A stretch of 64,000 nt of DNA from assembly GCF_003018255.1 (NCBI RefSeq), contig NZ_CP027440.1. One strand, 5' to 3'. The notes under the pieces were generated by a model, which was not told where the DNA came from, did no database searches, and saw only the letters and a program-made list of their open reading frames with translations. Source of the stretch: Escherichia coli (lineage in GTDB: Bacteria > Pseudomonadota > Gammaproteobacteria > Enterobacterales > Enterobacteriaceae). Both the position numbers and the translations under genes were made by a program. Below are positions 9,048 to 35,062 of this stretch, in pieces (position 1 is the stretch's first letter; every line of letters begins with the position of its first letter).

Positions 9048-9376
9048 GCCATCACATGGATCGAGGGTGGGATAATTCCAGTCAGCGAAATTTTACCGTA
9101 GGCTATCTGTTATTTGATTCTGTGGCGTGATAGCCGCCAGACACCACTGATCTCGTCACTCATTCCCCAATCCCGGCGAGAATGTGGTTATTTACAGAGC
9201 TAAAAAATGAATAAAAAAATAGAGCCTGTCGACATCCGCCAGACTCTACAGTACACACAGCAGTGCATCCTCGTCTTAAATCCGGCCTGGGGTCCTGGTG
9301 ACCGGTGACAGTGTTATAACGGTTTTACCCATCCGTTGCCAATTTTCTTCAGTGACAGATTTCACGAAAATATAAG

Positions 9377-16077: not shown

Positions 16078-16351
16078 CAAAAGCAATTTTCCCGGCTGTC
16101 TGTATACAAAAACGCCGCAAAGTTTGAGCGAAGTCAATAAACTCTCTACCCATTCAGGGCAATATCTCTCTTGCAGGTGAATGCAACGTCAAGCGATGGG
16201 CGTTGCGCTCCATATTGTCTTACTTCCTTTTTTGAATTACTGCATAGCACAATTGATTCGTACGACGCCGACTTTGATGAGTCGGCTTTTTTTTGCCTGT
16301 TATTTGTCAGCGTCTACCCTTTAAGAGTCCACCCAATGACCGGAGGGAAAT

Positions 16352-18056: not shown

Positions 18057-18992
18057 TTATTTCACTTCAACCACATTCAGCCGTAACTCATCCAACTGAT
18101 TTTCATCTTCTTCAGGCTGCCAACCCGCCGGTTGTAGAGGGATCTCTTCGCGATCAAACGCCAGATCACCCCCGTTAACCACTTCAGAACCGTGGGTAAT
18201 ACCTTTGAAATCGAACAGGTTGGTATCGCACAGATGCGACGGCACCACATTCTGCATCGCGCTGAACATCGTCTCGATACGCCCTGGATAACGTTTATCC
18301 CAGTCACGCAACATGTCAGCAATCACCTGACGTTGCAGGTTAGGCTGTGAACCGCACAGGTTGCACGGAATAATCGGGAACGCTTTTGCATCGGCAAAGC
18401 GCTGAATATCTTTCTCGCGGCAGTAGGCCAGCGGGCGAATCACGATATGTTTGCCATCATCGCTCATCAGTTTCGGAGGCATACCTTTCATCTTGCCGCC
18501 GTAGAACATATTTAAGAACAACGTTTGCAGGATATCGTCACGATGGTGACCCAGCGCGATCTTCGTCGCTCCCAGTTCCGTTGCGGTACGATAAAGGATA
18601 CCGCGACGAAGACGAGAACACAGTGAGCAAGTGGTTTTGCCCTCCGGAATCTTCTCTTTCACGATACCGTAAGTGTTCTCTTCCACAATCTTGTACTCAA
18701 CGCCCAGCTTTTCAAGATACTCGGGCAGAACGTGTTCCGGAAAGCCCGGTTGCTTTTGATCGAGGTTAACAGCCACCAGCGAAAAATTGATTGGCGCGCT
18801 TTGCTGCAAATTGCGCAGAATTTCCAGCATGGTATAGCTATCTTTACCCCCGGAGAGGCAAACCATGATGCGATCGCCTTCTTCAATCATATTGAAGTCA
18901 GCAATGGCTTCGCCCACGTTACGACGCAGGCGTTTTTGTAATTTGTTCAGGTTGTATATTTCTTTCTTCGTATTCTTTTGATTTTCTTGCAT
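18057..18992 (-). CDS. ttcA: tRNA 2-thiocytidine(32) synthetase TtcA
   Basis: 311 aa with SGGKDS PP-loop motif and CxxC pairs; its 5' end overlaps the prophage attL. Confidence 0.9.
18943..18957. other. attL core of the Rac-like prophage (TTGTTCAGGTTGTAT), inside the ttcA 5' coding region
   Basis: The same 15-mer recurs at 32764-32778 with diverged but related flanks. Confidence 0.55.
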
Positions 18993-19043
18993 TATTTCAG
19001 TTCTCTGGTACTAAATGGGGCAAATTGGGGGCAAACTTTGCAA

Positions 19044-20279
19044 CTACGATAACCGCGCATTCAACATGGCTACCTGTTCGTCGTTCATGTCATCAATCCA
19101 CATACCGTAAATTTCATACACCATCTGCGCAGTTTCATGCCCCATCTGGCTGGCTATAAACGCCGGGTTCGCTCCTGCCGTCAACAGCCAGCAGGCAAAA
19201 GTATGCCGCGTATGGTACGGATTACGGCGGCGAATACCAGCACGTTTTACTGCTGCATTCCATCTCGCACCCAAACTGCTTACCGAGTAATAAGGTTTCT
19301 GTTTTCCGTTACACACTCTGGGCATGAAAACAAAATGCAGTTTTTGCTTTTCGGTTCTGCCGTACTCCCGATGATAAAAAGTGATTTCGCTTTTGCGATG
19401 ATGCCCGGTCAGTTTGTATTGCTCCTTCAGTGCTTCAAGAGCAGGCTGCAGTAGTGTTACCGTCCGGATCCCCGCATTTGTTTTTGGGGGACCGAACATA
19501 TCAAGTATCGTCAGGTTTCTTCTGACATTCACAACTCCCTTCTCGAAATCCACATCCTCCCACGCCAGAGCAGCCAGTTCCCCGTGACGAAGCCCGGAGT
19601 ATACGGCAAATTTCCACAAGTTCTGGCTCTGTCCTTTTTCACTTTCCATTAATGCATTGAATTCTGTTTTAGATAACGGGTCAGGCTTTATTCTGTTTCT
19701 CTGTAATTTTTTTACTCCTTCAAATGGTTTGGTTGATATAAATCCCGACTGATACGCAAAACGTAACAACGAACAGAGCAGGGCGATATAATTATCAACT
19801 GTGCGCACGGTTCTTCCTTTTTTGTTGGATCTTGGATTATCTAGGTAAAGCGTTTCTCCATGCAGCAGTTCATTCCGGTAGTTTAAGATATCGCTATAAC
19901 GAATATGCGATATCGGGGTACTCTCACAAATTATTATCCTGAGTGTTTTTAATTGTGATTTCGTTTTCTTCATTGTGTTTGTTGTTAACTCTGTTTCTTT
20001 AATTTTTGTCCAGATATCACAAAGCTCCCCGAACGTTTTTATGACCCTCGTTGTCACCATTTTTGCCCCAGTGCTGGACTGGGGAAAACGTCTTAAATAC
20101 TCAAACTCACCGGAATTGATTTCATGAACTATCAACGCTCTTAAATTCCCGGCTTTTTTAATGTTACTGTTAGTAACCTCCCAGCCTTTCAATGTTTCCC
20201 GACATCGTTTTCCTCGAAACATGAACCAGATGCGAATGTATTTACCTCGAATCTCGACACCTGTTGGTAATTTAGACAT
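19044..20279 (-). CDS. intR: Rac prophage tyrosine integrase IntR
   Basis: 411 aa with a C-terminal tyrosine-recombinase catalytic region (HxxR ... Y); immediately inside attL. Confidence 0.9.
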   Translation of the reverse strand: MSKLPTGVEIRGKYIRIWFMFRGKRCRETLKGWEVTNSNIKKAGNLRALIVHEINSGEFEYLRRFPQSSTGAKMVTTRVIKTFGELCDIWTKIKETELTTNTMKKTKSQLKTLRIIICESTPISHIRYSDILNYRNELLHGETLYLDNPRSNKKGRTVRTVDNYIALLCSLLRFAYQSGFISTKPFEGVKKLQRNRIKPDPLSKTEFNALMESEKGQSQNLWKFAVYSGLRHGELAALAWEDVDFEKGVVNVRRNLTILDMFGPPKTNAGIRTVTLLQPALEALKEQYKLTGHHRKSEITFYHREYGRTEKQKLHFVFMPRVCNGKQKPYYSVSSLGARWNAAVKRAGIRRRNPYHTRHTFACWLLTAGANPAFIASQMGHETAQMVYEIYGMWIDDMNDEQVAMLNARLS

Positions 20280-20280
20280 A

Positions 20281-20496
20281 TCATGAGTCTTTGATAAACT
20301 GATTTATCTTTGGATAGTTGTACCAGATAATTCCTCGCTTACTGTCTGGCTTCCCTAAAGGAGATACTCGTTTGAAGTGGAAGCCTTCCACCCAACAGTT
20401 CTGGCGGTATGCTTCAATTTGTCTGGCCCCCAGACCAGTGCGAAGCATCAGGCCGTATTCAACCATCCACTCTTCATTAAAGATTACTTGTGCCAT
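20281..20496 (-). CDS. xisR: excisionase-like protein XisR (YdaQ)
   Basis: Start at [11 protein letters not shown] gives 71 aa; directly upstream of intR. Confidence 0.7.
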
Positions 20497-20595
20497 CGCA
20501 TTACCTCTGGCAGGCGCCAATGTTAGACTTAAATTGACGCCCGATGTTGATTATTAATAATCAGCTATGAAGTTTTAATTTGAATACAATGCAAT

Positions 20596-20796
20596 TCACG
20601 AGGACTGAAGTTTCTCGCAATTAAAATTTATCAGTTTTACTTTCTGCTCTCTGGAAACGCCTGCTTCTTTTTTACCTGAGAGCATTTTTTCGCATTCTGA
20701 TTTAGTTAGTTTATATTTTGAATATCTTGTCCAGTTAGTAGGAGTGCCACCTTCCTTTTCAATAGTGGCGGTAATTTTATACATGAACACCTCCAT
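20596..20796 (-). CDS. rcbA: Rac prophage protein RcbA (YdaC)-like
   Basis: ORF 20596..20856; contains MYKITATIEKEGGTPTNW...; exact start is ambiguous (Met at 20796 or 20784). Confidence 0.5.
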   Translation of the reverse strand: MEVFMYKITATIEKEGGTPTNWTRYSKYKLTKSECEKMLSGKKEAGVSREQKVKLINFNCEKLQSS

Positions 20797-20971
20797 TATT
20801 ATTTCCAGTGGTTCGTTTATTCCATCTTTCGAGTGCTTCTTTTTCACTTCCACCATAACCGGTTCGGGATTCGCATCCGTTACACTTCGCTCGGTAATAT
20901 CCTGAAATGGCTTTCACCGTTACTGATGGACAACCACAAAATGGACATGGTTTAACATTGTCATATCTCAT
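20777..20971 (-). CDS. ralR: restriction alleviation protein RalR (Lar), zinc-finger small protein
   Basis: Start at MRYDNVKPCPFCGCPSV gives 64 aa with two CxxC pairs. Confidence 0.75.
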   Translation of the reverse strand: MRYDNVKPCPFCGCPSVTVKAISGYYRAKCNGCESRTGYGGSEKEALERWNKRTTGNNNGGVHV

Positions 20972-21027
20972 AATTTTTCTCATAAAAAATATTTCAAGTT
21001 GGCGGTGCATTACACCGCCAGGCTGAA

Positions 21028-21843
<816 letters not shown>

Positions 21844-21909
21844 ATTTTATAACCCAGAACGGGCGTCAGAAATGACGCCTTTTTTATTGCAGAAAAGCGA
21901 GAGGTAATT

Positions 21910-22509
21910 ATGCGTAAACTTTATGCCGCCATTTTGTCCGCAGCCATTTGTCTGGCCGTATCCGGTGCGCCTGCATGGGCGTCTGAACATCAGTCCACGC
22001 TGAGCGCGGGGTATCTTCATGCCCGGACGAACGTTCCCGGCAGTGATGATCTGAACGGGATTAACGTGAAATACCGTTATGAGTTTACGGACACACTGGG
22101 GATGGTGACGTCATTCAGCTATGCAGGAGACAAGAATCGTCAGCTGACCCGTTACAGCGATACCCGCTGGCATGAAGATTCCGTTCGTAACCGCTGGTTC
22201 AGCGTAATGGCGGGGCCGTCTGTGCGCGTGAATGAATGGTTCAGCGCGTATGCGATGGCGGGTGTGGCTTACAGCCGTGTGTCGACTTTTTCCGGGGATT
22301 ATATCCGCGTAACTGACAATAAGGGGAAAACGCACGATGTGCTGACCGGAAGTGATGACGGTCGCCACAGCAACACGTCTCTGGCGTGGGGGGCTGGCGT
22401 GCAGTTTAACCCGACCGAATCCGTGGCCATTGATATTGCTTATGAAGGCTCCGGCAGTGGTGACTGGCGCACTGACGGTTTCATCGTGGGTGTCGGTTAT
22501 AAATTCTGA
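21910..22509 (+). CDS. lom: Lom/Ail/OmpX-family outer-membrane beta-barrel protein (prophage Lom)
   Basis: 199 aa with signal peptide, alternating beta-strand pattern and C-terminal GYKF. Confidence 0.85.
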   Translation: MRKLYAAILSAAICLAVSGAPAWASEHQSTLSAGYLHARTNVPGSDDLNGINVKYRYEFTDTLGMVTSFSYAGDKNRQLTRYSDTRWHEDSVRNRWFSVMAGPSVRVNEWFSAYAMAGVAYSRVSTFSGDYIRVTDNKGKTHDVLTGSDDGRHSNTSLAWGAGVQFNPTESVAIDIAYEGSGSGDWRTDGFIVGVGYKF

Positions 22510-22573
22510 TTAGCCAGGTAACACAGTGTTATGACAGCCCGCCGGTTCAGGCGGGCTTTTTTGTGGGGTGAAT

Positions 22574-25500
22574 ATGGCAGTAAAGATTTCAGGTGTACTG
22601 AAAGACGGTGCAGGTAAACCGGTACAGAACTGTACAATCCAGCTGAAAGCAAAACGTAACAGCACCACGGTGGTGGTGAACACGGTGGCCTCAGAAAATC
22701 CGGATGAAGCCGGGCGTTACAGCATGGACGTTGAGTACGGTCAGTACAGCGTTATTCTGTTGGTGGAAGGATTCCCGCCGTCACATGCCGGGACCATCAC
22801 CGTGTATGAAGATTCCCGACCCGGTACGCTGAATGATTTTCTCGGTGCCATGACGGAGGATGATGCCCGTCCGGAGGCTCTGCGCCGTTTTGAACTGATG
22901 GTGGAAGAGGTGGCGCGTAACGCGTCCGCGGTGGCACAGAACACGGCAGCCGCGAAGAAATCAGCCAGCGATGCCAGCACATCAGCCCGTGAGGCGGCAA
23001 CCCATGCGACTGATGCTGCAGATTCAGCACGTGCAGCCAGCACGTCAGCCGGACAGGCCGCTTCGTCGGCTCAGTCAGCGTCTTCCAGCGCAGGAACGGC
23101 ATCAACAAAGGCCACTGAAGCCTCAAAAAGTGCTGCCGCTGCAGAGTCCTCAAAAAGCGCGGCGGCTACCAGTGCCGGTGCGGCGAAAACGTCAGAAACG
23201 AATGCGGCAGCGTCACAACAATCAGCAGCCACTTCTGCATCCACCGCGACCACGAAAGCGTCAGAAGCTGCCACCTCAGCCCGGGATGCGTCGGCCTCAA
23301 AAGAGGCAGCGAAATCATCAGAAACGAACGCATCATCAAGTGCCAGTAGTGCAGCTTCCTCGGCAACGGCGGCAGGAAATTCCGCGAAGGCCGCAAAAAC
23401 GTCTGAGACGAATGCAGATAACAGCGCACAGGCGGCAGCAGACTCACAAACTGCATCAGCAAACTCCGCGACAGCAGCCAAAAAATCAGAAACCAACGCG
23501 AAAAATAGCGAGGCAGCAGCAAAGAGCAGCGAAACCAACGCTAAAGCCAGCGAAACTAATGCTAAATCCAGTGAAACAAACGCGGCGAAATCTGCGGCGG
23601 ACGCACTTAATTATCGCAACCAGGCGCAAGTAATTGTTGGCGATAATATCGGTCTTGGTGAAGTTGCCATGACCTGCACTGATATCTCTGTTGAGCCATC
23701 AGGTTATATTGGATTTGTCAGGATTTACATCTCAGCGAAAGGTTATCCATCAGTAGCGTCTAGTGCCGGTGATAATCTTATTTCTGGTTATATAGTTAGA
23801 TCAGAAGTGTCAACAAAAAGATATTCCGGTCTATTTGTTGGTTCAGATACAAAATCATTGTATTCGTACATTTACAGCCAAAGTTCTGGCCCGCAATGGA
23901 TACGTCATACCCGCAGAGATGAATTAAGCCGCTTTGGTCAAAATGAATCAACAACTCGTATGTATGGTCCAACTGGTGATCGTTTCTTTGAAATCCATAC
24001 TAACGGGAGTTGGGGAGTTTATGATTCTTCTTCTGGACAATGGTCTCCGTTAGGTTTAGCCCAGGGCGGTACTGGTGGAAGAACTATCGAGCAAGCACGT
24101 GCGAACTTGCGGGTAATGTATGAGCAAAAAGCTGGCCTTGCTAATACTGACCTAAACACCCTTACCGGTGAATATTCTGGTTTCTATCAACAACCAACGA
24201 GCGCTTACGCAACAGAAGAATTAAATTACCCAATCGGTCTGGCGGGCGCTTTAATAGTGCTCCAAACGAGAGCCAACACTGCTTCTTCCTGCGTTCAGGT
24301 GTACTACCCTTATAATAATCCGGGAATTACTTATAGACGAATATATGAAGGAGGAAGCGGTACCTGGTCTGAATGGAAGAGAGATGTATCAACAGAAAGG
24401 GTTGAAGAGGGAAAAGAAACAACTTACGTATATTCTACGTATTCTTCAGGCGCACCACGCTTACAGGTTTCCAAATCTGGTTTGTGGGGTTGTCATAATG
24501 GCACTGGCTGGTTGCCATTAGCTGTTGGGCAAGGAGGTACAGGTGCGACAACAGTAGAAGATGCGCGAAACAACTTAAGTCTTGGCGAAAGTAGCGCAGT
24601 TAAATTTAAAAACCTTACTTTAACCGAAGCGCTCGACACGACATTAGGACTGCTTACAAAAACAGGACGAGACTGGAACACGCAGCATACTGATAACATT
24701 AATAAATTTATACCAATTGCAGGCAGTACAAACGGCCCGGCAGGTTCTATGGTTCTTGGCGGCATTCATGTTCAATTTAGTAAAAATTATGCTGTGCAGT
24801 TCGGAGGCCGCAATTCCGGTTTTTGGGGAAGAACAATTGAAAATGGAACGACGCAGGAATGGAAGAAATTACTAACAGTAGACGATCTCAATTCATCTAC
24901 CGATCTTGCTGTCAGGTCATTAACCACATCTAACCCGGTAAAATCTGGCGGAGGGCGAATTGATGTCCTTGGAAGCACGTCAGACTATAGCAAAATGGAT
25001 TGCTTTGTACGTGGGTTTGATAGCACCGGTAATTCTCTCGCGTGGGCGTTGGGTTCATCAGTCGGCGTAAGTAAGATGCTGTCGCTAAAAAATTTCTTTA
25101 GCGGAGCTGAGATACTGTTAAATGGTAATGACGGCGCGGTTCAACTCAAAACAGGTGCTGTTAACGGGGCTAAAGCGCAGGCGCTCACTATCAACAAGGA
25201 TGAGGTTAACTCAACTGTTGATTTAACTCTTACAAAACAAACAGGGACTGGAAATCGTTTTGTTTTACAGAACTTAGGTAATACAGAACTATCATTTGCC
25301 GCAAAAGTATGGGGATCAAGTGATCGACAAAACGTTTTTGAGGTTGGAACGTCTGCTGCGTATCTGTTTTATGCGCAAAAAACGTCAGCAGGCCAGTTGT
25401 TTGATGTAAATGGCGCTATTAATTGCACAACGCTGAATCAGTCATCAGACCGCGACCTTAAAGACGATATTCTCGTTATCAGCGACGCGACGAAAGCAAT

Positions 25501-25879
25501 CCGTAAAATGAACGGATACACCTACACGCTCAGGGAAAACGGGATGCCTTATGCTGGCGTTATTGCACAGGAAGTAATGGAGGCGATACCAGAAGCTGTG
25601 GGATCGTTTACTCATTACGGTGAAGAGTTGCAGGGACCAACGGTTGACGGCAATGAATTACGTGAAGAAACACGTTATCTGAATGTTGACTACGCCGCCG
25701 TGACGGGGTTACTTGTTCAGGTCGCCCGTGAAACAGATGGTCGCGTTACCGCGCTGGAAGAGGAAAACATAACGCTACGTAAAAATCTGGCAACAGCAGG
25801 CACCCGGATCAGCACTCTGGAAAATCAGGTAAGCGAACTGGTTGCACTTGTCGGGCAGTTAACAGGAAGCGAACATTGA
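22574..25879 (+). CDS. stf: side tail fibre protein (lambda Stf-like N-terminus, Ala/Ser-rich repeat shaft, C-terminal endosialidase-type intramolecular chaperone / peptidase S74-like domain)
   Basis: Start MAVKISGVLKDGAGKPVQNC resembles the lambda Stf N-terminus; long AAxxSxTxA repeat region; C-terminal SDRDLKDD ... coiled-coil tail typical of self-cleaving fibre chaperone domains. Confidence 0.8.
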   Translation: MAVKISGVLKDGAGKPVQNCTIQLKAKRNSTTVVVNTVASENPDEAGRYSMDVEYGQYSVILLVEGFPPSHAGTITVYEDSRPGTLNDFLGAMTEDDARPEALRRFELMVEEVARNASAVAQNTAAAKKSASDASTSAREAATHATDAADSARAASTSAGQAASSAQSASSSAGTASTKATEASKSAAAAESSKSAAATSAGAAKTSETNAAASQQSAATSASTATTKASEAATSARDASASKEAAKSSETNASSSASSAASSATAAGNSAKAAKTSETNADNSAQAAADSQTASANSATAAKKSETNAKNSEAAAKSSETNAKASETNAKSSETNAAKSAADALNYRNQAQVIVGDNIGLGEVAMTCTDISVEPSGYIGFVRIYISAKGYPSVASSAGDNLISGYIVRSEVSTKRYSGLFVGSDTKSLYSYIYSQSSGPQWIRHTRRDELSRFGQNESTTRMYGPTGDRFFEIHTNGSWGVYDSSSGQWSPLGLAQGGTGGRTIEQARANLRVMYEQKAGLANTDLNTLTGEYSGFYQQPTSAYATEELNYPIGLAGALIVLQTRANTASSCVQVYYPYNNPGITYRRIYEGGSGTWSEWKRDVSTERVEEGKETTYVYSTYSSGAPRLQVSKSGLWGCHNGTGWLPLAVGQGGTGATTVEDARNNLSLGESSAVKFKNLTLTEALDTTLGLLTKTGRDWNTQHTDNINKFIPIAGSTNGPAGSMVLGGIHVQFSKNYAVQFGGRNSGFWGRTIENGTTQEWKKLLTVDDLNSSTDLAVRSLTTSNPVKSGGGRIDVLGSTSDYSKMDCFVRGFDSTGNSLAWALGSSVGVSKMLSLKNFFSGAEILLNGNDGAVQLKTGAVNGAKAQALTINKDEVNSTVDLTLTKQTGTGNRFVLQNLGNTELSFAAKVWGSSDRQNVFEVGTSAAYLFYAQKTSAGQLFDVNGAINCTTLNQSSDRDLKDDILVISDATKAIRKMNGYTYTLRENGMPYAGVIAQEVMEAIPEAVGSFTHYGEELQGPTVDGNELREETRYLNVDYAAVTGLLVQVARETDGRVTALEEENITLRKNLATAGTRISTLENQVSELVALVGQLTGSEH

Positions 25880-26086
25880 TATCCTTCAAGCCCTGAAGGA
25901 GGCTGTTCCTGGTACGTTCAGACTGTTGTTGAGCTGGAAATCGCAACGGAGGAAGAAACTTCGTTGCTGGAAGTCTGGAAAAAGTATCGGGTGTTGCTGA
26001 ACCGTGTTGATACATCAACTGCACCTGATGTTGATTGGCCAGCAGCACCGAAGTGTAATTCATTAGAACTCATCACCTGTGAATAA
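25880..26086 (+). pseudogene. orphan 3' remnant of a tail-fibre-assembly (tfa) gene
   Basis: In frame with stf immediately after its stop, no start codon; encodes ...[29 protein letters not shown]..., a Tfa-type C-terminal motif by recollection. Confidence 0.45.
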
Positions 26087-26687
26087 TATCTGTTTTTGAG
26101 TAAGTTAGTAATAATCACTTAAATGTGTTATGAGTTTGTTGAGGCGTGATTTGCAATAGGATAGAGAGTACGATTATGGATTGAGAATAAGAAAGCGCCA
26201 TGAAAGAGTTTCATGGCGAGTACATAAACGTACAAAATATGATGAAAGTAGAGTGGCATAAGCCACTATGTTAACTTATAGCAATAGGGAAGATAAGTAA
26301 ATAATATTTCTTGAGTATAGTGTAAGTCGTTCATTGTAAAGCGTTAATGTTATCTATATTGTTTATCTTAAAATAAGGTGTATAAACCAAACTTTTGAGC
26401 TAAAAGTTTAAAGAGTATTAGTGCAAAAATAATGTTTAATAAGATAATCAATTTGCTTTGTATCTTCATTTCGAAAGATTGCTAAGTAACGTTAATTACC
26501 AAAACGATAGATCAGAATTATCTTAGAGTCAATGACTTTAGGTTTGTTTATAATGTAAATATTTTCTATTTGTTATAAGTTTTCTTAATATAGTCACCCA
26601 TGCAACTTGTTCCGTGTGGAGATTAAAGGTTAAAATTTAATGCGAAGATGGAATTATATTATATTTGTTATAATTAATTTAACCTTA

Positions 26688-26770
26688 ACATCGTTGCTGG
26701 CGGCATGGAAGAAATATCGGGTCTTGCTGATGTCGTGTTGGCACTTCCTTAGTGCCGGATATCGAGTGGC
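26688..26770 (+). pseudogene. second, frameshifted tfa-like C-terminal remnant
   Basis: Encodes ...[10 protein letters not shown] then, after a +1 shift, RVGTSLVPDIEWPAAPIG; a degenerate direct repeat of 25955-26060. Confidence 0.3.
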
Positions 26771-26987
26771 CAGCTGCACCTATAGGGTAAAAATATAGTT
26801 CTATATGGGAGCGCTATTTTTACAATATAAATGCTGAACGGAAGAATCTAACCAGTTACAAAAAACATAGTTATGTAATCCAGTTGCCTGGGCATGCGTG
26901 TGATGTTGATAGCTATTACTGTATCTTCCGTTCACTTACCTTATTGTGAACAGTTATATATAATTTGATCTGCTCTTATTCAGCCTG

Positions 26988-28190
26988 CTAGGCTGCTGTA
27001 AATCTTCGATACTTTCTTAACATAAAGATCATGATTAGAATAATTGAAAGTAAGTAAACAATCCAAATGGTGATATTTCGTTCAATTAAAAAGCTACCAA
27101 TTCCGCCGATCACTGAAGGAATCACCAGAGAAGCGGCCCCCATTAACGCAGATGTGGCACCCAGACTGGTACGTTGGCTGGACATAGTTAGGTAAGTATA
27201 AAGTGATTCGAACATACCTCCGGCAAACATCAAAACAATGAAGAATAATATAAAAACATTGACATGATGAACGAATATTATTAGCGGAGTGCACAATACG
27301 ATAAATGAAGCAATGAGCTTCAGCCATAAACTCAAAATTTGTGGTGCAGACCGCTTCTTAAGTAGTTTACCTGATAGTGCTGCTCCCAGCAGAAGGAATC
27401 CTCCAATAATTGATGAGATAACACCAAATTGCGTAGATGAGTATCCATACTTAACCATCAAAATAAATGGGGAAGCTGTGACATAACAATAAATTAGAGA
27501 GAATGAAAGTCCAAGAGAAAGGCAAGGTAGATAAAATCTTGGTTGCTTACTTATCTCTTTGTACGTAAGAAATGATGATTTTAGTGAATATGTAATCCGT
27601 TTTTTATGACTGAGTGTTTCAGGGAAGTTAAAATAGACATACGTTAATGTTACAACAGAATATCCTAATATCATTAGAAAAATTGCACGCCATCCCCATA
27701 CATCATTAATTATTCCTCCCAGCAGTGGAGAAGCAATAGGCACGACACCTTCAATAGTTATGATAATAGCGTACAGTGTAGCAGCCACTGAACCGCGTGT
27801 TACATCACGAACGGCACTAATTGCTGTAACCAGAGTTATTGATATAGAAAGCCCCTGTATGATGCGTATTGTAAGAAACGTACCCAATCCGGTCGAGAGT
27901 GTGAGGCAATATGTTGTCACACAATAAATAATAGCACCTGAAAGCATAATTCTTCGACGACCAATAGAATCAGATAATGGGCCAAAAATTAGCTGTCCAA
28001 AACCTATACAAAGGGTATAAACCATGATAGACAATTGCATGGACGGGATGTTTTGTCTAAATTCTTTTGCGATGTCAGGAATTGAAGGCAAATAAGTGTC
28101 CACACCTAGAATGCCCATAATAGTCAGCAGCGATAGGCCAATAGTAAAGAAAAGTATATTCTTTCTGTGAATAACAACTTGTGATTTCAT
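26988..28190 (-). CDS. MFS transporter (12-TMS, Bcr/CflA-like drug:H+ antiporter family), AT-rich foreign gene
   Basis: 400 aa, highly hydrophobic, with the MFS signature GPLSDSIGRRR after TM2; GC content visibly far below the flanking DNA. Confidence 0.8.
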   Translation of the reverse strand: MKSQVVIHRKNILFFTIGLSLLTIMGILGVDTYLPSIPDIAKEFRQNIPSMQLSIMVYTLCIGFGQLIFGPLSDSIGRRRIMLSGAIIYCVTTYCLTLSTGLGTFLTIRIIQGLSISITLVTAISAVRDVTRGSVAATLYAIIITIEGVVPIASPLLGGIINDVWGWRAIFLMILGYSVVTLTYVYFNFPETLSHKKRITYSLKSSFLTYKEISKQPRFYLPCLSLGLSFSLIYCYVTASPFILMVKYGYSSTQFGVISSIIGGFLLLGAALSGKLLKKRSAPQILSLWLKLIASFIVLCTPLIIFVHHVNVFILFFIVLMFAGGMFESLYTYLTMSSQRTSLGATSALMGAASLVIPSVIGGIGSFLIERNITIWIVYLLSIILIMIFMLRKYRRFTAA

Positions 28191-28952
28191 TATTTATCAC
28201 CATGAATAAATTAAAAGAATGAAAAAAACTCCATTTAAATGGAAGGAGGTGGATAATTATCGTGTAGGCAATACAACAGAGTTGAAAAGAACTGTCAAAC
28301 TTTTAACTCAAAAAAGTGAGATGTGAATCACAGACATAAAAATCATCTTTTTCAGCCCTATGGTTCAGTTAAATTTGATTGTTATCGTACGAAGGTTTGA
28401 ACGTGTGTGTGCGTATGCGGTATTTTTTCTTGCGAGTGCCGGAGTTATGAGAGCGTTGTATTAACCTTCATAATCTGACCTATTCAATTGATTCCAGTAC
28501 ACCAATGGGTATTTTGGTGTTATGGTATGTGACTCCAAATAAAATGGAGCGTGAACTGATAGTTGTGCGAACAAAAGTCGGACTAGAAACCGCTCGGGTA
28601 CAGTGGCGAATTGGAGTTGGCGACCCAAACTGACCTAGGAACAATCGTTGCAGATCGGACGATTAATTTCATCAGAAATTCCTCGCTAAAAGGTGGCTAT
28701 CACTGTGATGTTAACGTATCTAATTTGTACAAGAAATTTCTGCGGGGGAAAATGAAACCGCAGACTCGTTGTATGCAAAAACGTGCTGCGGCTAACTGGT
28801 GAACTTTCGATAGTGCGGGTATTGAATGATTTCTAGGCGTTATCGATTTTACGTATTTTTTGCATGATAGAATTCGTACCTCCTCCCAACGACCTTCCAT
28901 GGCTTTCCGGACTTCTGTAGGCCGGCGGACGATGCTGTCCTCGGATGTTGTG

Positions 28953-29810
28953 CTAATTGGGTGATAACAGATCCTGTGTATGGGAGTTTCCCTTTGTGCG
29001 TGCGTTGATGCTGGTAACGGTAAACGTCATGATGAACACGACCGCGAATAAGACGACAATCGTCGGAGCTGGTGCGCTGTCGATAAAAAAGGACAACCAG
29101 ACACCAGTCATTGACACTATTACCGATATGCCAGTCGCCAGTAGGAGCGCAATATGAAAGCGTTGTGTCAGGAGTACCGCAATGGCGCCAGGCGCTATGA
29201 GCAGAGAAATGGAGAGAATGATACCTACCGCTTTCAGCGTCGCCACAATGGTCAGAGAGACCATGCACAGCAGCCCATAATGCAGCCATCTCGTATGCAA
29301 ACCGCTTACCTGCGCCTGTTGATAATCAAAGCTGAACAGCAAAAAATCCCGCCATTTTACGCTAATAACAAGTGTAACCAGCCCGGCAATAATCATCGTC
29401 TGGATTATATCGCCGATGGTTATCCCGAGCATGTCGCCGAAAAGAATATGGTCAAGATGTACGTCTGGTTTGACTGCAATATACAAGATCAGACCTGCGG
29501 CAAACATGCCAGAAAAAACAATCCCCATCACTGTATCTTGCTTGATTCGGCTGTTGTCTTTCAGGTATCCCGTCGCCACCGCGCAGAATACTCCGGCGAC
29601 GAATGCCCCTGTAGCTAAAGGTAACCCCAGAATCCAGGCAAGCACGATGCCAGGAAAAACTGCATGACTCATCGCGTCACCCATCAGTGCCCAACCTTTC
29701 AGGACCAGAAAGACCGACAGCAGCGCACAGGGTATGGAAACTACCAGTGAAATCAGCAGTGCGTGACTCATAAAGGTGAACTGCAGTGGCTCCAGTAATA
29801 ATGCCATCAT
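28953..29810 (-). CDS. sitD: Mn/Fe ABC transporter permease SitD
   Basis: 285 aa integral membrane permease; last gene of the four-gene operon; overlaps sitC by 4 bp. Confidence 0.9.
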   Translation of the reverse strand: MMALLLEPLQFTFMSHALLISLVVSIPCALLSVFLVLKGWALMGDAMSHAVFPGIVLAWILGLPLATGAFVAGVFCAVATGYLKDNSRIKQDTVMGIVFSGMFAAGLILYIAVKPDVHLDHILFGDMLGITIGDIIQTMIIAGLVTLVISVKWRDFLLFSFDYQQAQVSGLHTRWLHYGLLCMVSLTIVATLKAVGIILSISLLIAPGAIAVLLTQRFHIALLLATGISVIVSMTGVWLSFFIDSAPAPTIVVLFAVVFIMTFTVTSINARTKGNSHTQDLLSPN

Positions 29811-30664
29811 GAGCGATCCTCCAGCGCCTTATGCGCACGCCGACGATTTGCCAAAAGCCCATGGGTGGGCGCAAAGACAAATGCTAAAAGAAACAGCAGT
29901 GTCTGCGCCACCACGATGATTCCACCTGTCGCGCCGTCCAGAAAGTAACTGACCCACGAGCCGAGGAAACTGGTTACACTGCCAATAGTTACAGCAATCA
30001 TGAGCAGGCGGGGAAAACGATCGGTTAACAACCATGCTGTTGCACCGGGAGTCACCACCAGACAGATCACCAGAAAGGCACCAACCGTTTGCAGCGCCGC
30101 AACGGTCGAAACCGACAGCAGGGTGAAGAAGAGGAGTTTTAATCTGCCCGGATGCAATCCAATAGCACGGGCGTGATTCTCGTCGAAAAAGGTCACCATA
30201 AGATCTTTCCATTTGAAAAAAAGCACGATGATCGAGAGAATGCCAATGATAGTGAGTTGCAGGATATCCGCCGGATCGATTGCCAGAATATTGCCCAGGA
30301 CGATGGTCTGAATGTTCACAGATGTCGGGTTCAATGACACCATAAACAGCCCCAGGCCAAAAAAGGATGAGAAGATCAGGCCGATGATGGCATCTTCTTT
30401 TAAGCGGGTGCGTTGGTTAAGAAACAGCATGCTGCCCGCAGCCAGTCCGCCGGAAAAGAAGGCTCCCAGAGAAAACGGAAGCCCCAGCATATATGCTCCC
30501 GCAACACCCGGGACAATAGAGTGCGACAACGCATCGCCAATCAGCGACCAGCCTTTTAGCATCAGATAGCATGACAGGAAAGCGCAGAGACCGCCGACCA
30601 TCGCCGAGACCCACATCGCATTGAGCATATATTCATAGCTGAAGGGTTCCAGTAGCACGTTCAT
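29807..30664 (-). CDS. sitC: Mn/Fe ABC transporter permease SitC
   Basis: 285 aa permease paralogous to SitD; 4-bp overlaps on both sides. Confidence 0.9.
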
Positions 30665-31488
30665 CTTTCTTCCCTCTGCACCGCTGACGGTCGATGAGCC
30701 ACAAAAGGGCGTTCATCGTCAGTAATAATGCTTTCTTCCGAGCCGTTAAGTGTGACATGGCGCAGTACGCCGCTAAAAGCCAGCTCCAGGTTCTCGGCTG
30801 TAAAAGTGGTGTCTGTCGGCCCGCTTGCCAGGACGGTGCCTTTGACCATGACCGTATAATCGCAAAATGTCGTGACGGATCCGAGATTGTGTGTTGAGAC
30901 AAGCATCGTTTTGCCTTCCGCGCGTAACTCCCTCAACAGGCTGATGATTTTGGCTTCGGTTTTCACATCAACGCCAGTAAAAGGTTCATCCAGCAGGATC
31001 ACATCACCCTGCTGTGCAATCGCTCTCGCCAGAAAGACGCGTTTCTTTTGTCCACCGGAAAGCTCGCCGATTTGTCGATGGCGAAAATTCACCATATCGA
31101 CACGTTCCAGCGCATCGGTGACAATTTGACGATCCCTCTTTTTGGCGATACGCAACATACCCATATGCCCATAGCGGCCCATCATCACCACATCTTCCAC
31201 CAGTACAGGAAATGACCAGTCAACCTCTTCTGACTGAGGGACGTAGGCAACCAGGTTTTTCTGTAACGCCTGTCGCGTGGGAATACCCAGAACAGATATC
31301 TTTCCGCTGGTCAGACGCACAAATCCCATAATCGCTTTAAACAACGTCGATTTTCCGGAACCGTTTACCCCAACCAGAGCGGCAATAGATCCACTTGGTA
31401 CTGTGAAGGATGCATCGCGCAGTGCTGTGTGCCCGTTACGCCAGGTGACAGTAACATCATTAACGACAATGCCTGCAGATTGCATCAT
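30661..31488 (-). CDS. sitB: Mn/Fe ABC transporter ATP-binding protein SitB
   Basis: 275 aa with Walker [13 protein letters not shown] signature LSGGQKKR and Walker B ILLDEP. Confidence 0.9.
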
Positions 31489-32402
31489 TATTTCTCCCTT
31501 TTCCCGGCTTTAATTCCCTGTACCAGCGTACTGGTAGTAACCTTAAGAAGGTCGATATACGTCGGTACCGGGCCGTTTTCTGTGCTCAGGGAATCGACAT
31601 AGAGCACACCGCCGTAGTGTGCGCCGGTTTCACGCGCAACCTGACGCGCTGGTTTATCGGAAATCGTACTCTCGCTAAAGACTGCCGGGATATGATTTTT
31701 CTTAACTATATCAACAACCTTACGTACCTGTTGCGGTGTTCCTTGTTGATCGGCATTAATCGGCCACAGATAAAGCTCTTTTAGCCCCAAATCGCGTGCG
31801 AGATAAGAAAAAGCCCCTTCACTGGTGACCATCCACCGCTGATTCTCAGGGAGTTCCGTAATCTGCTTACGCAGGGGGGCAAGGGTTTGGGTAATCTTGG
31901 CTTTATAAGTATCGGCATTACGTTGGTAGGTTTGTGCATTAGCGGGATCGTATTTTATCAACGCATCACGAATATTATCGACGTAAATCAGAGCATTATC
32001 TGGCGACATCCATGCATGGGGGTTAGGTTTGCCCTCATAGGGGCCTTCGGTGATCCCTACTGGCGTCACACCCGAAGAGACAATTACTTCTGGAACCCCA
32101 TTGAGATGCTGGTAAAAGCGTTGGAACCACAATTCCAGATTCATACCATTGGCGAGGATCAGTTGTGCCCCCTGCGCACGTTTAATATCGCCAGGGGTAG
32201 GCTGATACTCATGAATTTCTGCACCGGGCTTGGTTATGGATGAGACTTCTGCAGCATCTCCAGCCACGTTTTTGGCCATATCCGCGATGATGGTAAATGT
32301 TGTAATGACCTTGAATTTTTCAGTTGCACTTGCCTGAAATGCGATCGAGCAGGTGAGGGCGAGGCACCCCAAGAGCATGGTTACTTTTTTTATTGAGTGC
32401 AT
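31488..32402 (-). CDS. sitA: periplasmic Mn/Fe-binding protein SitA (cluster A-I substrate-binding protein)
   Basis: 304 aa with signal peptide; first gene of the operon; 1-bp overlap with sitB. Confidence 0.9.
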
Positions 32403-32434
32403 AATTTAGTACCTATAGTGAGCAAAATTAGAAC

Positions 32435-32456
32435 AAACATAGCAACGGCTATGTTT
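32435..32456. promoter_or_regulatory. MntR box (perfect palindrome AAACATAGC-N4-GCTATGTTT) in the sitA promoter
   Basis: Perfect 9-bp inverted repeat 33 bp upstream of the sitA start; matches the MntR operator consensus as I recall it. Confidence 0.65.
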
Positions 32457-32477
32457 TATAGCACAACCTATACAAAA

Positions 32478-32496
32478 TGAAAATGATTATCATTAA
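32478..32496. promoter_or_regulatory. Fur box in the sitA promoter
   Basis: TGAAAATGATTATCATTAAC matches the GATAATGATAATCATTATC Fur consensus at most positions. Confidence 0.6.
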
Positions 32497-32610
32497 CAAC
32501 TTTGTGGCCCAAAACAGGGATTAGGTTGTTTCCTGCTGGCGACATGGTATTGAGGAAAAAAGCAGGGCAGCTATTAGGCTTTGAAATGACTTTATGAGGA
32601 AAATTTTTGA

Positions 32611-32655
32611 TGGCAAAAATGGGGCAAAACGCTGTAGAAGGGGCAAAAAAGGGGC
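32611..32655. repeat. three direct GGGGCAAAA(A) repeats in the prophage arm next to attR
   Basis: GGGGCAAAAC ... GGGGCAAAAAA GGGGCAAAAAAA; two similar copies lie at 19019-19038 next to attL. Confidence 0.6.
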
Positions 32656-32763
32656 AAAAAAAGAGTGGATTATCGTAGCTTATTGTTGTCGCTGATAATG
32701 TTTAACATATTGAAAAATAAATAAAATACTTATGAGTCAGATAGTTGTGATTTTTGCCCTTAC

Positions 32764-32813
32764 TTGTTCAGGTTGTATTGTTCTTTCTTACTAATTTCTT
32801 GATTTTGCGACAT
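32764..32813 (-). pseudogene. ttcC: ttcC: duplicated ttcA 5' fragment at attR (core TTGTTCAGGTTGTAT at 32764-32778)
   Basis: Reverse strand encodes MSQNQEISKKEQYNLNK-stop, paralogous to the TtcA N-terminus [17 protein letters not shown]. Confidence 0.6.
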
Positions 32814-34697: not shown

Positions 34698-35004
34698 TGA
34701 ATAAATCCTTTAGTTATTTTATTTGCCTTTTATCCCCATTTCGGGGAGTGAAAACATCCTAAAGGAGAAGTTCAGTTAGCCGATAAATATCATTTGTTAC
34801 GCCTTAAGTAAAACCTTAATCAAATAATTCTACGGAAATGATAATAAGTCTGGTGAATGTATTGAAGATAATACATACAAAATAAAAATTATACTTTTAA
34901 TTTGCTATACGTTATTCTGCGCGGGTTATATGCCTTTATTGTCACAGATTTTATTTTCTGTTGGGCCATTGCATTGCTACTGATTTTCCAACATATAAAA
35001 AGAC

Positions 35005-35035
35005 AAGCCCGAACAGTCGTCCGGGCTTTTTTTTA
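35005..35035. terminator. hairpin plus T-run downstream of ydbK (bidirectional appearance)
   Basis: AAGCCCGAACAGTCGTCCGGGCTTTTTTTTT, flanked by A/T runs on both sides. Confidence 0.45.
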
Positions 35036-35062
35036 GAATTGGATAATCCTTATCCAGTGCAT

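Follow-up and report, generated by a model that had tools for sequence, protein, structure and literature searches.

The closest described counterpart of the locus considered here is the RalR/RalA pair of the Escherichia coli K-12 Rac prophage. In that strain, RalR is toxic when overproduced and cuts DNA in vitro, and RalA, a small RNA (sRNA), lowers the level of RalR protein together with Hfq (PMC4041452). RalA acts in trans on the ralR coding region via a 16-nt repeat that lies 62 nt downstream of its transcript start, and compensatory changes in the 16-nt elements provided the evidence for an RNA mechanism (PMC4041452). The same founding paper judged the neighboring gene rcbA (also known as ydaC) to encode no protein; the antitoxin effect remained when a stop was placed at rcbA codon 9 or when the start codon was mutated. 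Restriction alleviation by RalR was not obtained by those authors, and work cited within the paper found that rcbA lowers chromosome breaks (PMC4041452). A review published in 2014 regarded the pairing within a coding region and the Hfq dependence as unusual, and the transcript ends were unmapped at that time (PMC4147584). The homologous locus described here occupies the minus-strand interval 20596-20971 of the window (the whole 64,000-nt stretch of the E. coli contig NZ_CP027440.1 that was analyzed), and consists of rcbA and ralR of a Rac-like prophage at ttcA, with RalA encoded on the plus strand.

At the sequence level, this interval is nearly identical to the named K-12 locus, and the resemblance is far past chance. 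The ralR-rcbA/ralA segment is a standard, already known part of Rac-like lambdoid prophages in ttcA. An initial annotation of the window, hereafter the original prediction, had described RalR as a DNase toxin with RalA as its sRNA antitoxin and had given RcbA a role in modulating chromosome breaks; the K-12 literature bears out both descriptions (PMC4041452 and work cited therein). It had further proposed that the module was retained by selection for addiction or defense functions. The structure of the element points instead to retention by position.

Layout of the element and the putative deletion behind it

In strain AR436 (NZ_CP029111.1), an intact Rac-like prophage has the order ttcA-intR-xisR-DUF1187-ralR-recT-recE ... 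head/tail ... J-lom-stfR-tfa-MFS-sitABCD-uspF. Relative to this arrangement, the prophage gene set in the window is incomplete, with recT truncated and recE through most of J absent (Table 1). The breakpoint was mapped by comparing the window with AR436 recT and with the J gene of APEC O78, since the J gene of AR436 has diverged too far at that point to serve as an anchor. The recT sequence is colinear with AR436 recT up to 21328 and J homology starts at 21327, which places the junction at 21327-21328 with a 2-bp microhomology (TA). From 21324 onward, the J fragment is 99.6% identical to the gpJ 3' ends of many E. coli genomes. About 39 kb (in AR436 terms) separating recT from the 3' end of J is gone, a block that includes recombination, regulation, replication, lysis, head, and tail genes. 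A single putative deletion with one junction explains this structure.

Among 5,426 complete E. coli genomes, not one contains the recT/J junction, an absence suggestive of a recent or lineage-restricted event. The source genome may lie outside this collection, or the deletion may be private; an assembly artifact may also be involved. The left-end block running from ttcA' through intR, xisR, rcbA, and ralR to recT' is present over at least 80% of its length in 1,815 of these genomes (about a third), and induced phage records, Rac-SA53 among them, contain it too.

The boundaries and the gene content of the element allow the original prediction of a prophage stump to be refined. The predicted interval was exact, with 20596 being the final base of the rcbA stop and 20971 the first base of the ralR ATG. 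The status as a prophage remnant, the identities of ralR and rcbA (from profile matches and the comparison with K-12), and the proximity of int and xis are all upheld, as intR and xisR adjoin ttcA. The claim that everything else was lost does not hold: fragments of recT and J, the genes lom and stfR, an MFS transporter gene, and sitABCD remain. The "stump" is an att-bounded element of approximately 13.8 kb (18943-32778) that carries tail-fiber genes and the iron/manganese transporter genes sitABCD. Its attL core corresponds to the K-12 Rac boundary (position 1900 of the K-12 MG1655 locus, L001), and the K-12 attR sequence is matched from 32743 onward. The integrase IntR is undisrupted, with five amino acid differences from K-12 IntR, and the lom-stfR order matches that in strains AR436 and GF50. 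The MFS and sitABCD cargo inside this att-bounded remnant is in itself a plausible reason for persistence of the element.

Given this layout, the module would have persisted by its position, less than 1 kb from xis-int at the attL end: one illegitimate deletion of about 39 kb, running from inside recT to inside J, would have stopped short of it. We regard this positional explanation for an intact ralR-rcbA/ralA module in a deleted Rac remnant as highly probable. Because a single deletion explains the layout, selection for addiction or defense is not needed, and the shape of the element gives no evidence of selection on the toxin-antitoxin pair. Furthermore, since the junction is absent from the genomes searched, the deletion is possibly recent, in which case any gene would still be intact. 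The genes lom and stfR and gene fragments without an addiction role are retained too.

A natural case of ralR loss also bears on the question of selection. In a Rac remnant of E. coli GDSC2227PM (L012 5586-6468), an IS1-associated deletion took ralR together with the 5' part of rcbA, and with it RalA's 3' part, yet xisR and a frameshifted intR were kept. Retention of the module by selection, either as an addiction module that kills cells losing it or as a defense function, could draw on the facts that the module is fully intact, that its ralR does not differ from the K-12 allele found toxic in experiments, that both RalA pairing elements are intact, and that toxin-antitoxin behavior has been published for K-12 (PMC4041452). 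Moreover, the element may be excisable, as it still has intR, xisR, and both att repeats, and a stabilizing module could then matter. However, neither RalR nor RcbA matches any PADLOC defense model, and the sitABCD cargo would explain the persistence of the element just as well. The deletion also appears to have taken the whole region upstream of recT, where the promoter of the early-left operon that includes ralR would be expected. Together with the GDSC2227PM case and the single-deletion layout, these points make selection on the module decidedly unlikely, and the proposal in the original prediction is not borne out.

Several considerations nevertheless count against the positional explanation. 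All four left-end genes are undamaged while recT is cut 357 bp away, a pattern compatible with breakpoint avoidance of a toxin-antitoxin pair. A single junction cannot separate neutral from selected retention. In addition, the evidence for a RalA promoter and terminator, described below, is weak.

RalR, the RalA RNA, and their putative expression signals

The ralR product matches the NCBIfam RalR equivalog NF007260 over its full length (166 bits; cut-off 113; E = 2e-49; positions 1-64 of 64), and exceeds the cut-offs of TIGR03655 (55.3 bits; cut-off 39.6) and of the Pfam family Lar_restr_allev, PF14354 (53.5 bits; cut-off 28.6). In the alignment with ralR of K-12 MG1655, the two genes have 100% nucleotide identity, and thus no inactivating substitution relative to K-12 is present. 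The residues that are invariant across 55 diverse single-domain members of the Lar family (C9, P10, C12, C30, C33, W50, N51, and R53) are all present. This family is large, with 909 clusters at E <= 0.001, and the annotation given to PHROG 599 is that of a Lar-like restriction alleviation protein. A 2025 review of restriction-modification was searched for remarks on either Lar or RalR, and it contained none (PMC12707154).

An AlphaFold2 model of RalR (pLDDT 81) consists of a beta-hairpin zinc ribbon and a C-terminal helix. A Foldseek search of this model against the PDB returned no nuclease fold; the best match had an E-value of 0.41, and the weak matches were zinc ribbons. On the nuclease question this null result is structurally neutral, and nuclease activity is not thereby excluded. 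A phmmer search of RalR against PDB sequences gave a match to the chitin-binding protein CbpD (E = 0.002), which was rejected as a spurious cysteine-rich hit.

The RalA homolog covers the whole of its Rfam model with a score of 217.1 bits (gathering score 170) and has the same position as the annotated K-12 ralA (b4714). This match is homology to the K-12 sequence, not expression. The original prediction placed RalA antisense to ralR, which requires correction: RalA is wholly antisense to rcbA and shares only 2 nt with ralR. It is identical to the K-12 sequence at 177 of 179 positions, and neither of the two substitutions (RalA positions 105 and 115) touches the pairing element or the 5' and 3' hairpins. 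A further base change, which alters the end of rcbA (TGA/AGA; see below), sits 2 nt upstream of the RalA 5' end. The location of the pairing element within RalA agrees with the start reported in K-12 (PMC4041452).

Pairing was judged by the longest exact complementarity, in comparison with shuffled sequences, and by homologous 16-nt windows. In the window, 14 of the 16 positions form Watson-Crick pairs and one forms a G-U pair, with 11 contiguous pairs, and the pairing is unchanged from K-12; an 11-nt exact match was attained by approximately 2-3.5% of shuffles. RNAduplex prediction with the full-length ralR mRNA and RalA was set aside as uninformative, as such long sequences give large energies that were equaled by shuffles. 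Two E. coli variants, Rac-SA53 and COL60J, retain the 11-nt core. The 16-nt pairing is not kept in the loci from Salmonella (L015), Citrobacter (L017), and a metagenome (L006), where 7-8 scattered Watson-Crick pairs are found and the longest complementarity anywhere is 7-8 nt, a length attained by 40-88% of shuffles. In addition, the Rfam RalA score is only 24-36 bits on the divergent DUF1187 loci L004, L005, L008, and L009. Among the loci examined, the predicted RNA pairing is confined to E. coli lineages.

The search for a RalA promoter and terminator, suggested by the original prediction, gave a divided outcome. A -10-like hexamer and a 3' hairpin are present (Table 1); no recognizable -35 accompanies the hexamer, which was not called by a two-hexamer promoter scan, and the terminator was not called by a terminator scan, which misses this hairpin because its loop exceeds 8 nt. 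The RalA 3' segment folds at -7.8 kcal/mol, and the fold of the whole RNA is no more stable than that of shuffled sequence (z = 0.19). The best sigma-70-like site on the plus strand near ralA is at 20534-20561 (TTGACG-16-AATAAT; 10/12), downstream of the rcbA stop; a transcript from it would begin about 30 nt upstream of the 5' end published for RalA. The primer extension in PMC4041452 was made on a ralR-ydaC insert that does not include this site, so native RalA may exceed 179 nt.

For ralR, the sole promoter-like site on the minus strand in 21000-23000 is a weak one at 21069-21040 (9/12). A minus-strand candidate at 20997-20970 was rejected, as its -10 overlaps the ralR ATG. Expression of ralR in this remnant would probably depend on the weak internal site or on read-through. 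The 56-nt spacer between recT and ralR also contains a GC-rich hairpin (GGCGGTG-CATTA-CACCGCC; 21001-21019) that is identical in K-12, with no T-run directly after it on either strand.

The presence of only one weak promoter-like site within 2 kb upstream, the loss of a regulatory region that is present in AR436, and the absence of the junction from the complete genomes searched would all suit an alternative in which ralR and rcbA are transcriptionally silent debris, not meaningfully expressed and intact merely for want of decay time. Such silence appears somewhat unlikely. Both ralR and ralA transcripts were detected in wild-type K-12 even though the early operon is repressed (Guo et al.), which suggests local promoters, and the 21069-21040 site as well as the RalA -10-like hexamer are unchanged from K-12.

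Coding status and evolution of rcbA

The rcbA product covers the entire Pfam DUF1187 profile (PF06688; 131.4 bits against a cut-off of 20.7; positions 1-61 of 61) and PHROG 5753 (positions 1-62 of 62), and scores 137 bits against NCBIfam NF007283 (cut-off 92). Compared with K-12, it has Y24 in place of S24 and one synonymous change. In addition, a TGA at 20596-20598 replaces the AGA of K-12, such that RcbA has 62 rather than 69 residues. An inactivating truncation was considered and rejected, because the protein spans the Pfam profile completely and because four divergent DUF1187 homologs (P0052, P0053, P0058, and P0060) are 61-64 aa long. Moreover, the aligned RcbA sequences of E. coli and Shigella mostly stop at 62 residues. 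The 69-aa form of K-12 looks like a read-through variant.

Selection on rcbA was evaluated against homologs with 62-64% nucleotide identity from Klebsiella oxytoca (L004) and from metagenome or read-archive contigs (L005 and L008). The proportion of synonymous differences (pS) is 0.70-0.88, which is near saturation, and that of nonsynonymous differences (pN) is about 0.25, with a dN/dS of approximately 0.15-0.2 where calculable. About half of the differences (31-36 of 65-70) are at third codon positions. Judged from these substitution patterns, the rcbA frame is under clear purifying selection at the protein level, which indicates that rcbA evolves as a protein-coding gene.

The gene neighborhoods of DUF1187 homologs vary. 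The ralR-rcbA pair of open reading frames (ORFs) is kept in the Salmonella, Citrobacter, and metagenome loci L015, L017, and L006, and the 8-nt overlap is kept in Salmonella. The DUF1187 gene also occurs without a Lar gene, downstream of a Dam-like methyltransferase gene in L008 and of an unrelated 64-aa ORF in L004. In both of these loci (L008 3171-4186 and L004 3819-4186), the DUF1187 gene overlaps the end of the upstream ORF by 13 nt, and both upstream ORFs terminate in ...PCTK. The conserved start of DUF1187 proteins, MYKIT, constrains the C-terminus of any gene upstream.

These patterns raise the possibility of a two-protein, early-left lambdoid cassette, composed of a Lar/RalR restriction-alleviation protein and a genuine RcbA protein, in which RalA would be secondary or lineage-specific and which would be a passenger here with no toxin-antitoxin role. 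Purifying selection on rcbA, the ORF pair with its overlap in Salmonella, the poor pairing in the Salmonella and Citrobacter loci, the low Rfam scores on divergent DUF1187 loci, and the occurrence of DUF1187 genes without Lar partners are all in line with this explanation, as are the annotation of PHROG 599 and a RalR model of zinc ribbon and helix without a nuclease-like structural match. However, a missing structural match does not exclude nuclease activity, and the core pairing is kept in Rac-SA53 and COL60J. The K-12 experiments also conflict with it, given the persistence of the antitoxin effect in the rcbA mutants, the compensatory changes in the 16-nt elements, and the failure to obtain restriction alleviation (PMC4041452). 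Such a cassette is therefore possible, if doubtful.

A related suggestion starts from the finding that rcbA is selectively constrained and travels with Lar/RalR as an overlapping gene pair, even in Salmonella, where the RNA pairing is not kept: the RcbA protein itself, alongside the RNA, might be the conserved functional partner of RalR, perhaps a modulator or a protein antitoxin. We consider this unlikely; if true, the K-12 model of a toxin-antitoxin pair of type I with a non-coding ydaC would be incomplete. The suggestion applies to the family at large rather than to the window in particular.

Table 1. Coordinates of the ralR-rcbA/ralA module and of the other features of the Rac-like element.
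Feature	Position	Strand	Basis or remark
ttcA	18057-18992	-	
attL core repeat within the ttcA 5' end, left prophage boundary	18943-18957		15-bp exact repeat with 32764-32778
intR, tyrosine integrase, full length, 411 aa	19044-20279	-	Pfam Arm-DNA-bind_2 and Phage_integrase
xisR, excisionase, 71 aa	20281-20496	-	Pfam DUF1233 putative excisionase; protein identical to K-12 XisR
TACAAT, -10-like hexamer; the 5' end reported for RalA is 10 nt downstream	20585-20590	+	Read from sequence
rcbA (ydaC), DUF1187 gene, 62-aa form	20596-20784	-	Start overlaps ralR stop by 8 nt
RalA sRNA homolog, 179 nt	20600-20778	+	Rfam RF02694, model positions 1-179 of 179
RalA 16-nt pairing element TGCTTCTTTTTTACCT, RalA positions 63-78	20662-20677	+	Identical to K-12
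RalA 3' hairpin (6 bp, 14-nt loop) followed by GUAAUUUU, published putative terminator	20745-20770	+	
ralR (lar), 64-aa zinc-ribbon Lar-family protein, reported DNase toxin	20777-20971	-	NF007260, TIGR03655, PF14354
RalA target in the ralR coding region, AAGTGAAAAAGAAGCA on the mRNA, codons S-E-K-E-A	20833-20848	-	Identical to K-12
recT 3' fragment, C-terminal 100 of 269 codons	21028-21328	-	Pfam RecT profile positions 133-187 only
J (tail tip gene) 3' fragment, C-terminal receptor-binding domain	21327-21843	+	Pfam Ig_GpJ_C
lom, intact	21910-22509	+	Pfam Ail_Lom
stfR, side tail fiber gene, intact	22568-25879	+	Pfam phage_tail_N and Peptidase_S74
MFS efflux transporter gene, right-end cargo	26988-28190	-	Pfam MFS_1
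sitDCBA, right-end cargo	28953-32402	-	Pfam ABC-3 and ZnuA; annotated sitABCD in GF50 and AR436
attR core repeat, ttcC pseudogene region, right boundary	32764-32778		15-bp exact repeat with 18943-18957

Significance and comparison with known systems

For discovery, the locus matters little, as it is a named and annotated K-12 module that is present in about one third of complete E. coli genomes. Its value lies in the corrections given above to the placement of RalA, to the extent of the element, and to the reading of its shape as a sign of selection. In addition, the contrast between the protein-coding evolution of rcbA and the pairing, restricted to E. coli among the loci examined, may interest those working on RalR/RalA. 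Elsewhere, the window encodes another antitoxin RNA of type I, sok (RF01794; 105 bits), at 62231-62382 on the minus strand, presumably as part of a hok/sok-type locus. Other known sRNAs in the window are McaS (9211-9306), FnrS (16173-16290), MicC (34922-35042), and RydC (61608-61671).

Among the known systems, K-12 Rac occupies the same site next to xisR-intR at ttcA and has the same 8-nt ralR/rcbA overlap, the same ralR sequence, a RalA that differs at two positions, and both 16-nt elements unchanged. The two differ in rcbA, which is seven codons shorter in the window and encodes Y24 instead of S24, and in their internal losses: recT is truncated and recE to most of J is gone in the window, whereas K-12 keeps recET and has lost other internal parts. 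The AR436 prophage is 99.8% identical over the ttcA'-intR-xisR-rcbA-ralR-recT' block, and has the same MFS transporter gene and sitABCD as right-end cargo; both AR436 and phage Rac-SA53 (KU052037) have the same 62-aa DUF1187 RcbA. Unlike AR436, the window lacks the approximately 39 kb from recT to the 3' end of J.

Beyond Rac, the TisB/IstR-1, ShoB/OhsC, and ZorO/OrzO pairs similarly combine a small toxin gene with a neighboring, oppositely oriented sRNA that acts through short trans pairing. RalR differs from these toxins in being a soluble zinc-ribbon protein, not a membrane peptide. RalA differs from these antitoxins in pairing inside the coding region in an Hfq-dependent manner, the features flagged as unusual (PMC4147584), and in being fully antisense to a second protein gene that is selectively constrained. 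Finally, both the zinc ribbon (CPxC...CxxC) and the helix motif (WN(K/R)R) of the Lar family (PF14354/TIGR03655) occur in RalR, which scores above both cut-offs. The name of that family refers to restriction alleviation, whereas the identical K-12 protein has been reported as a non-specific DNase toxin (PMC4041452).

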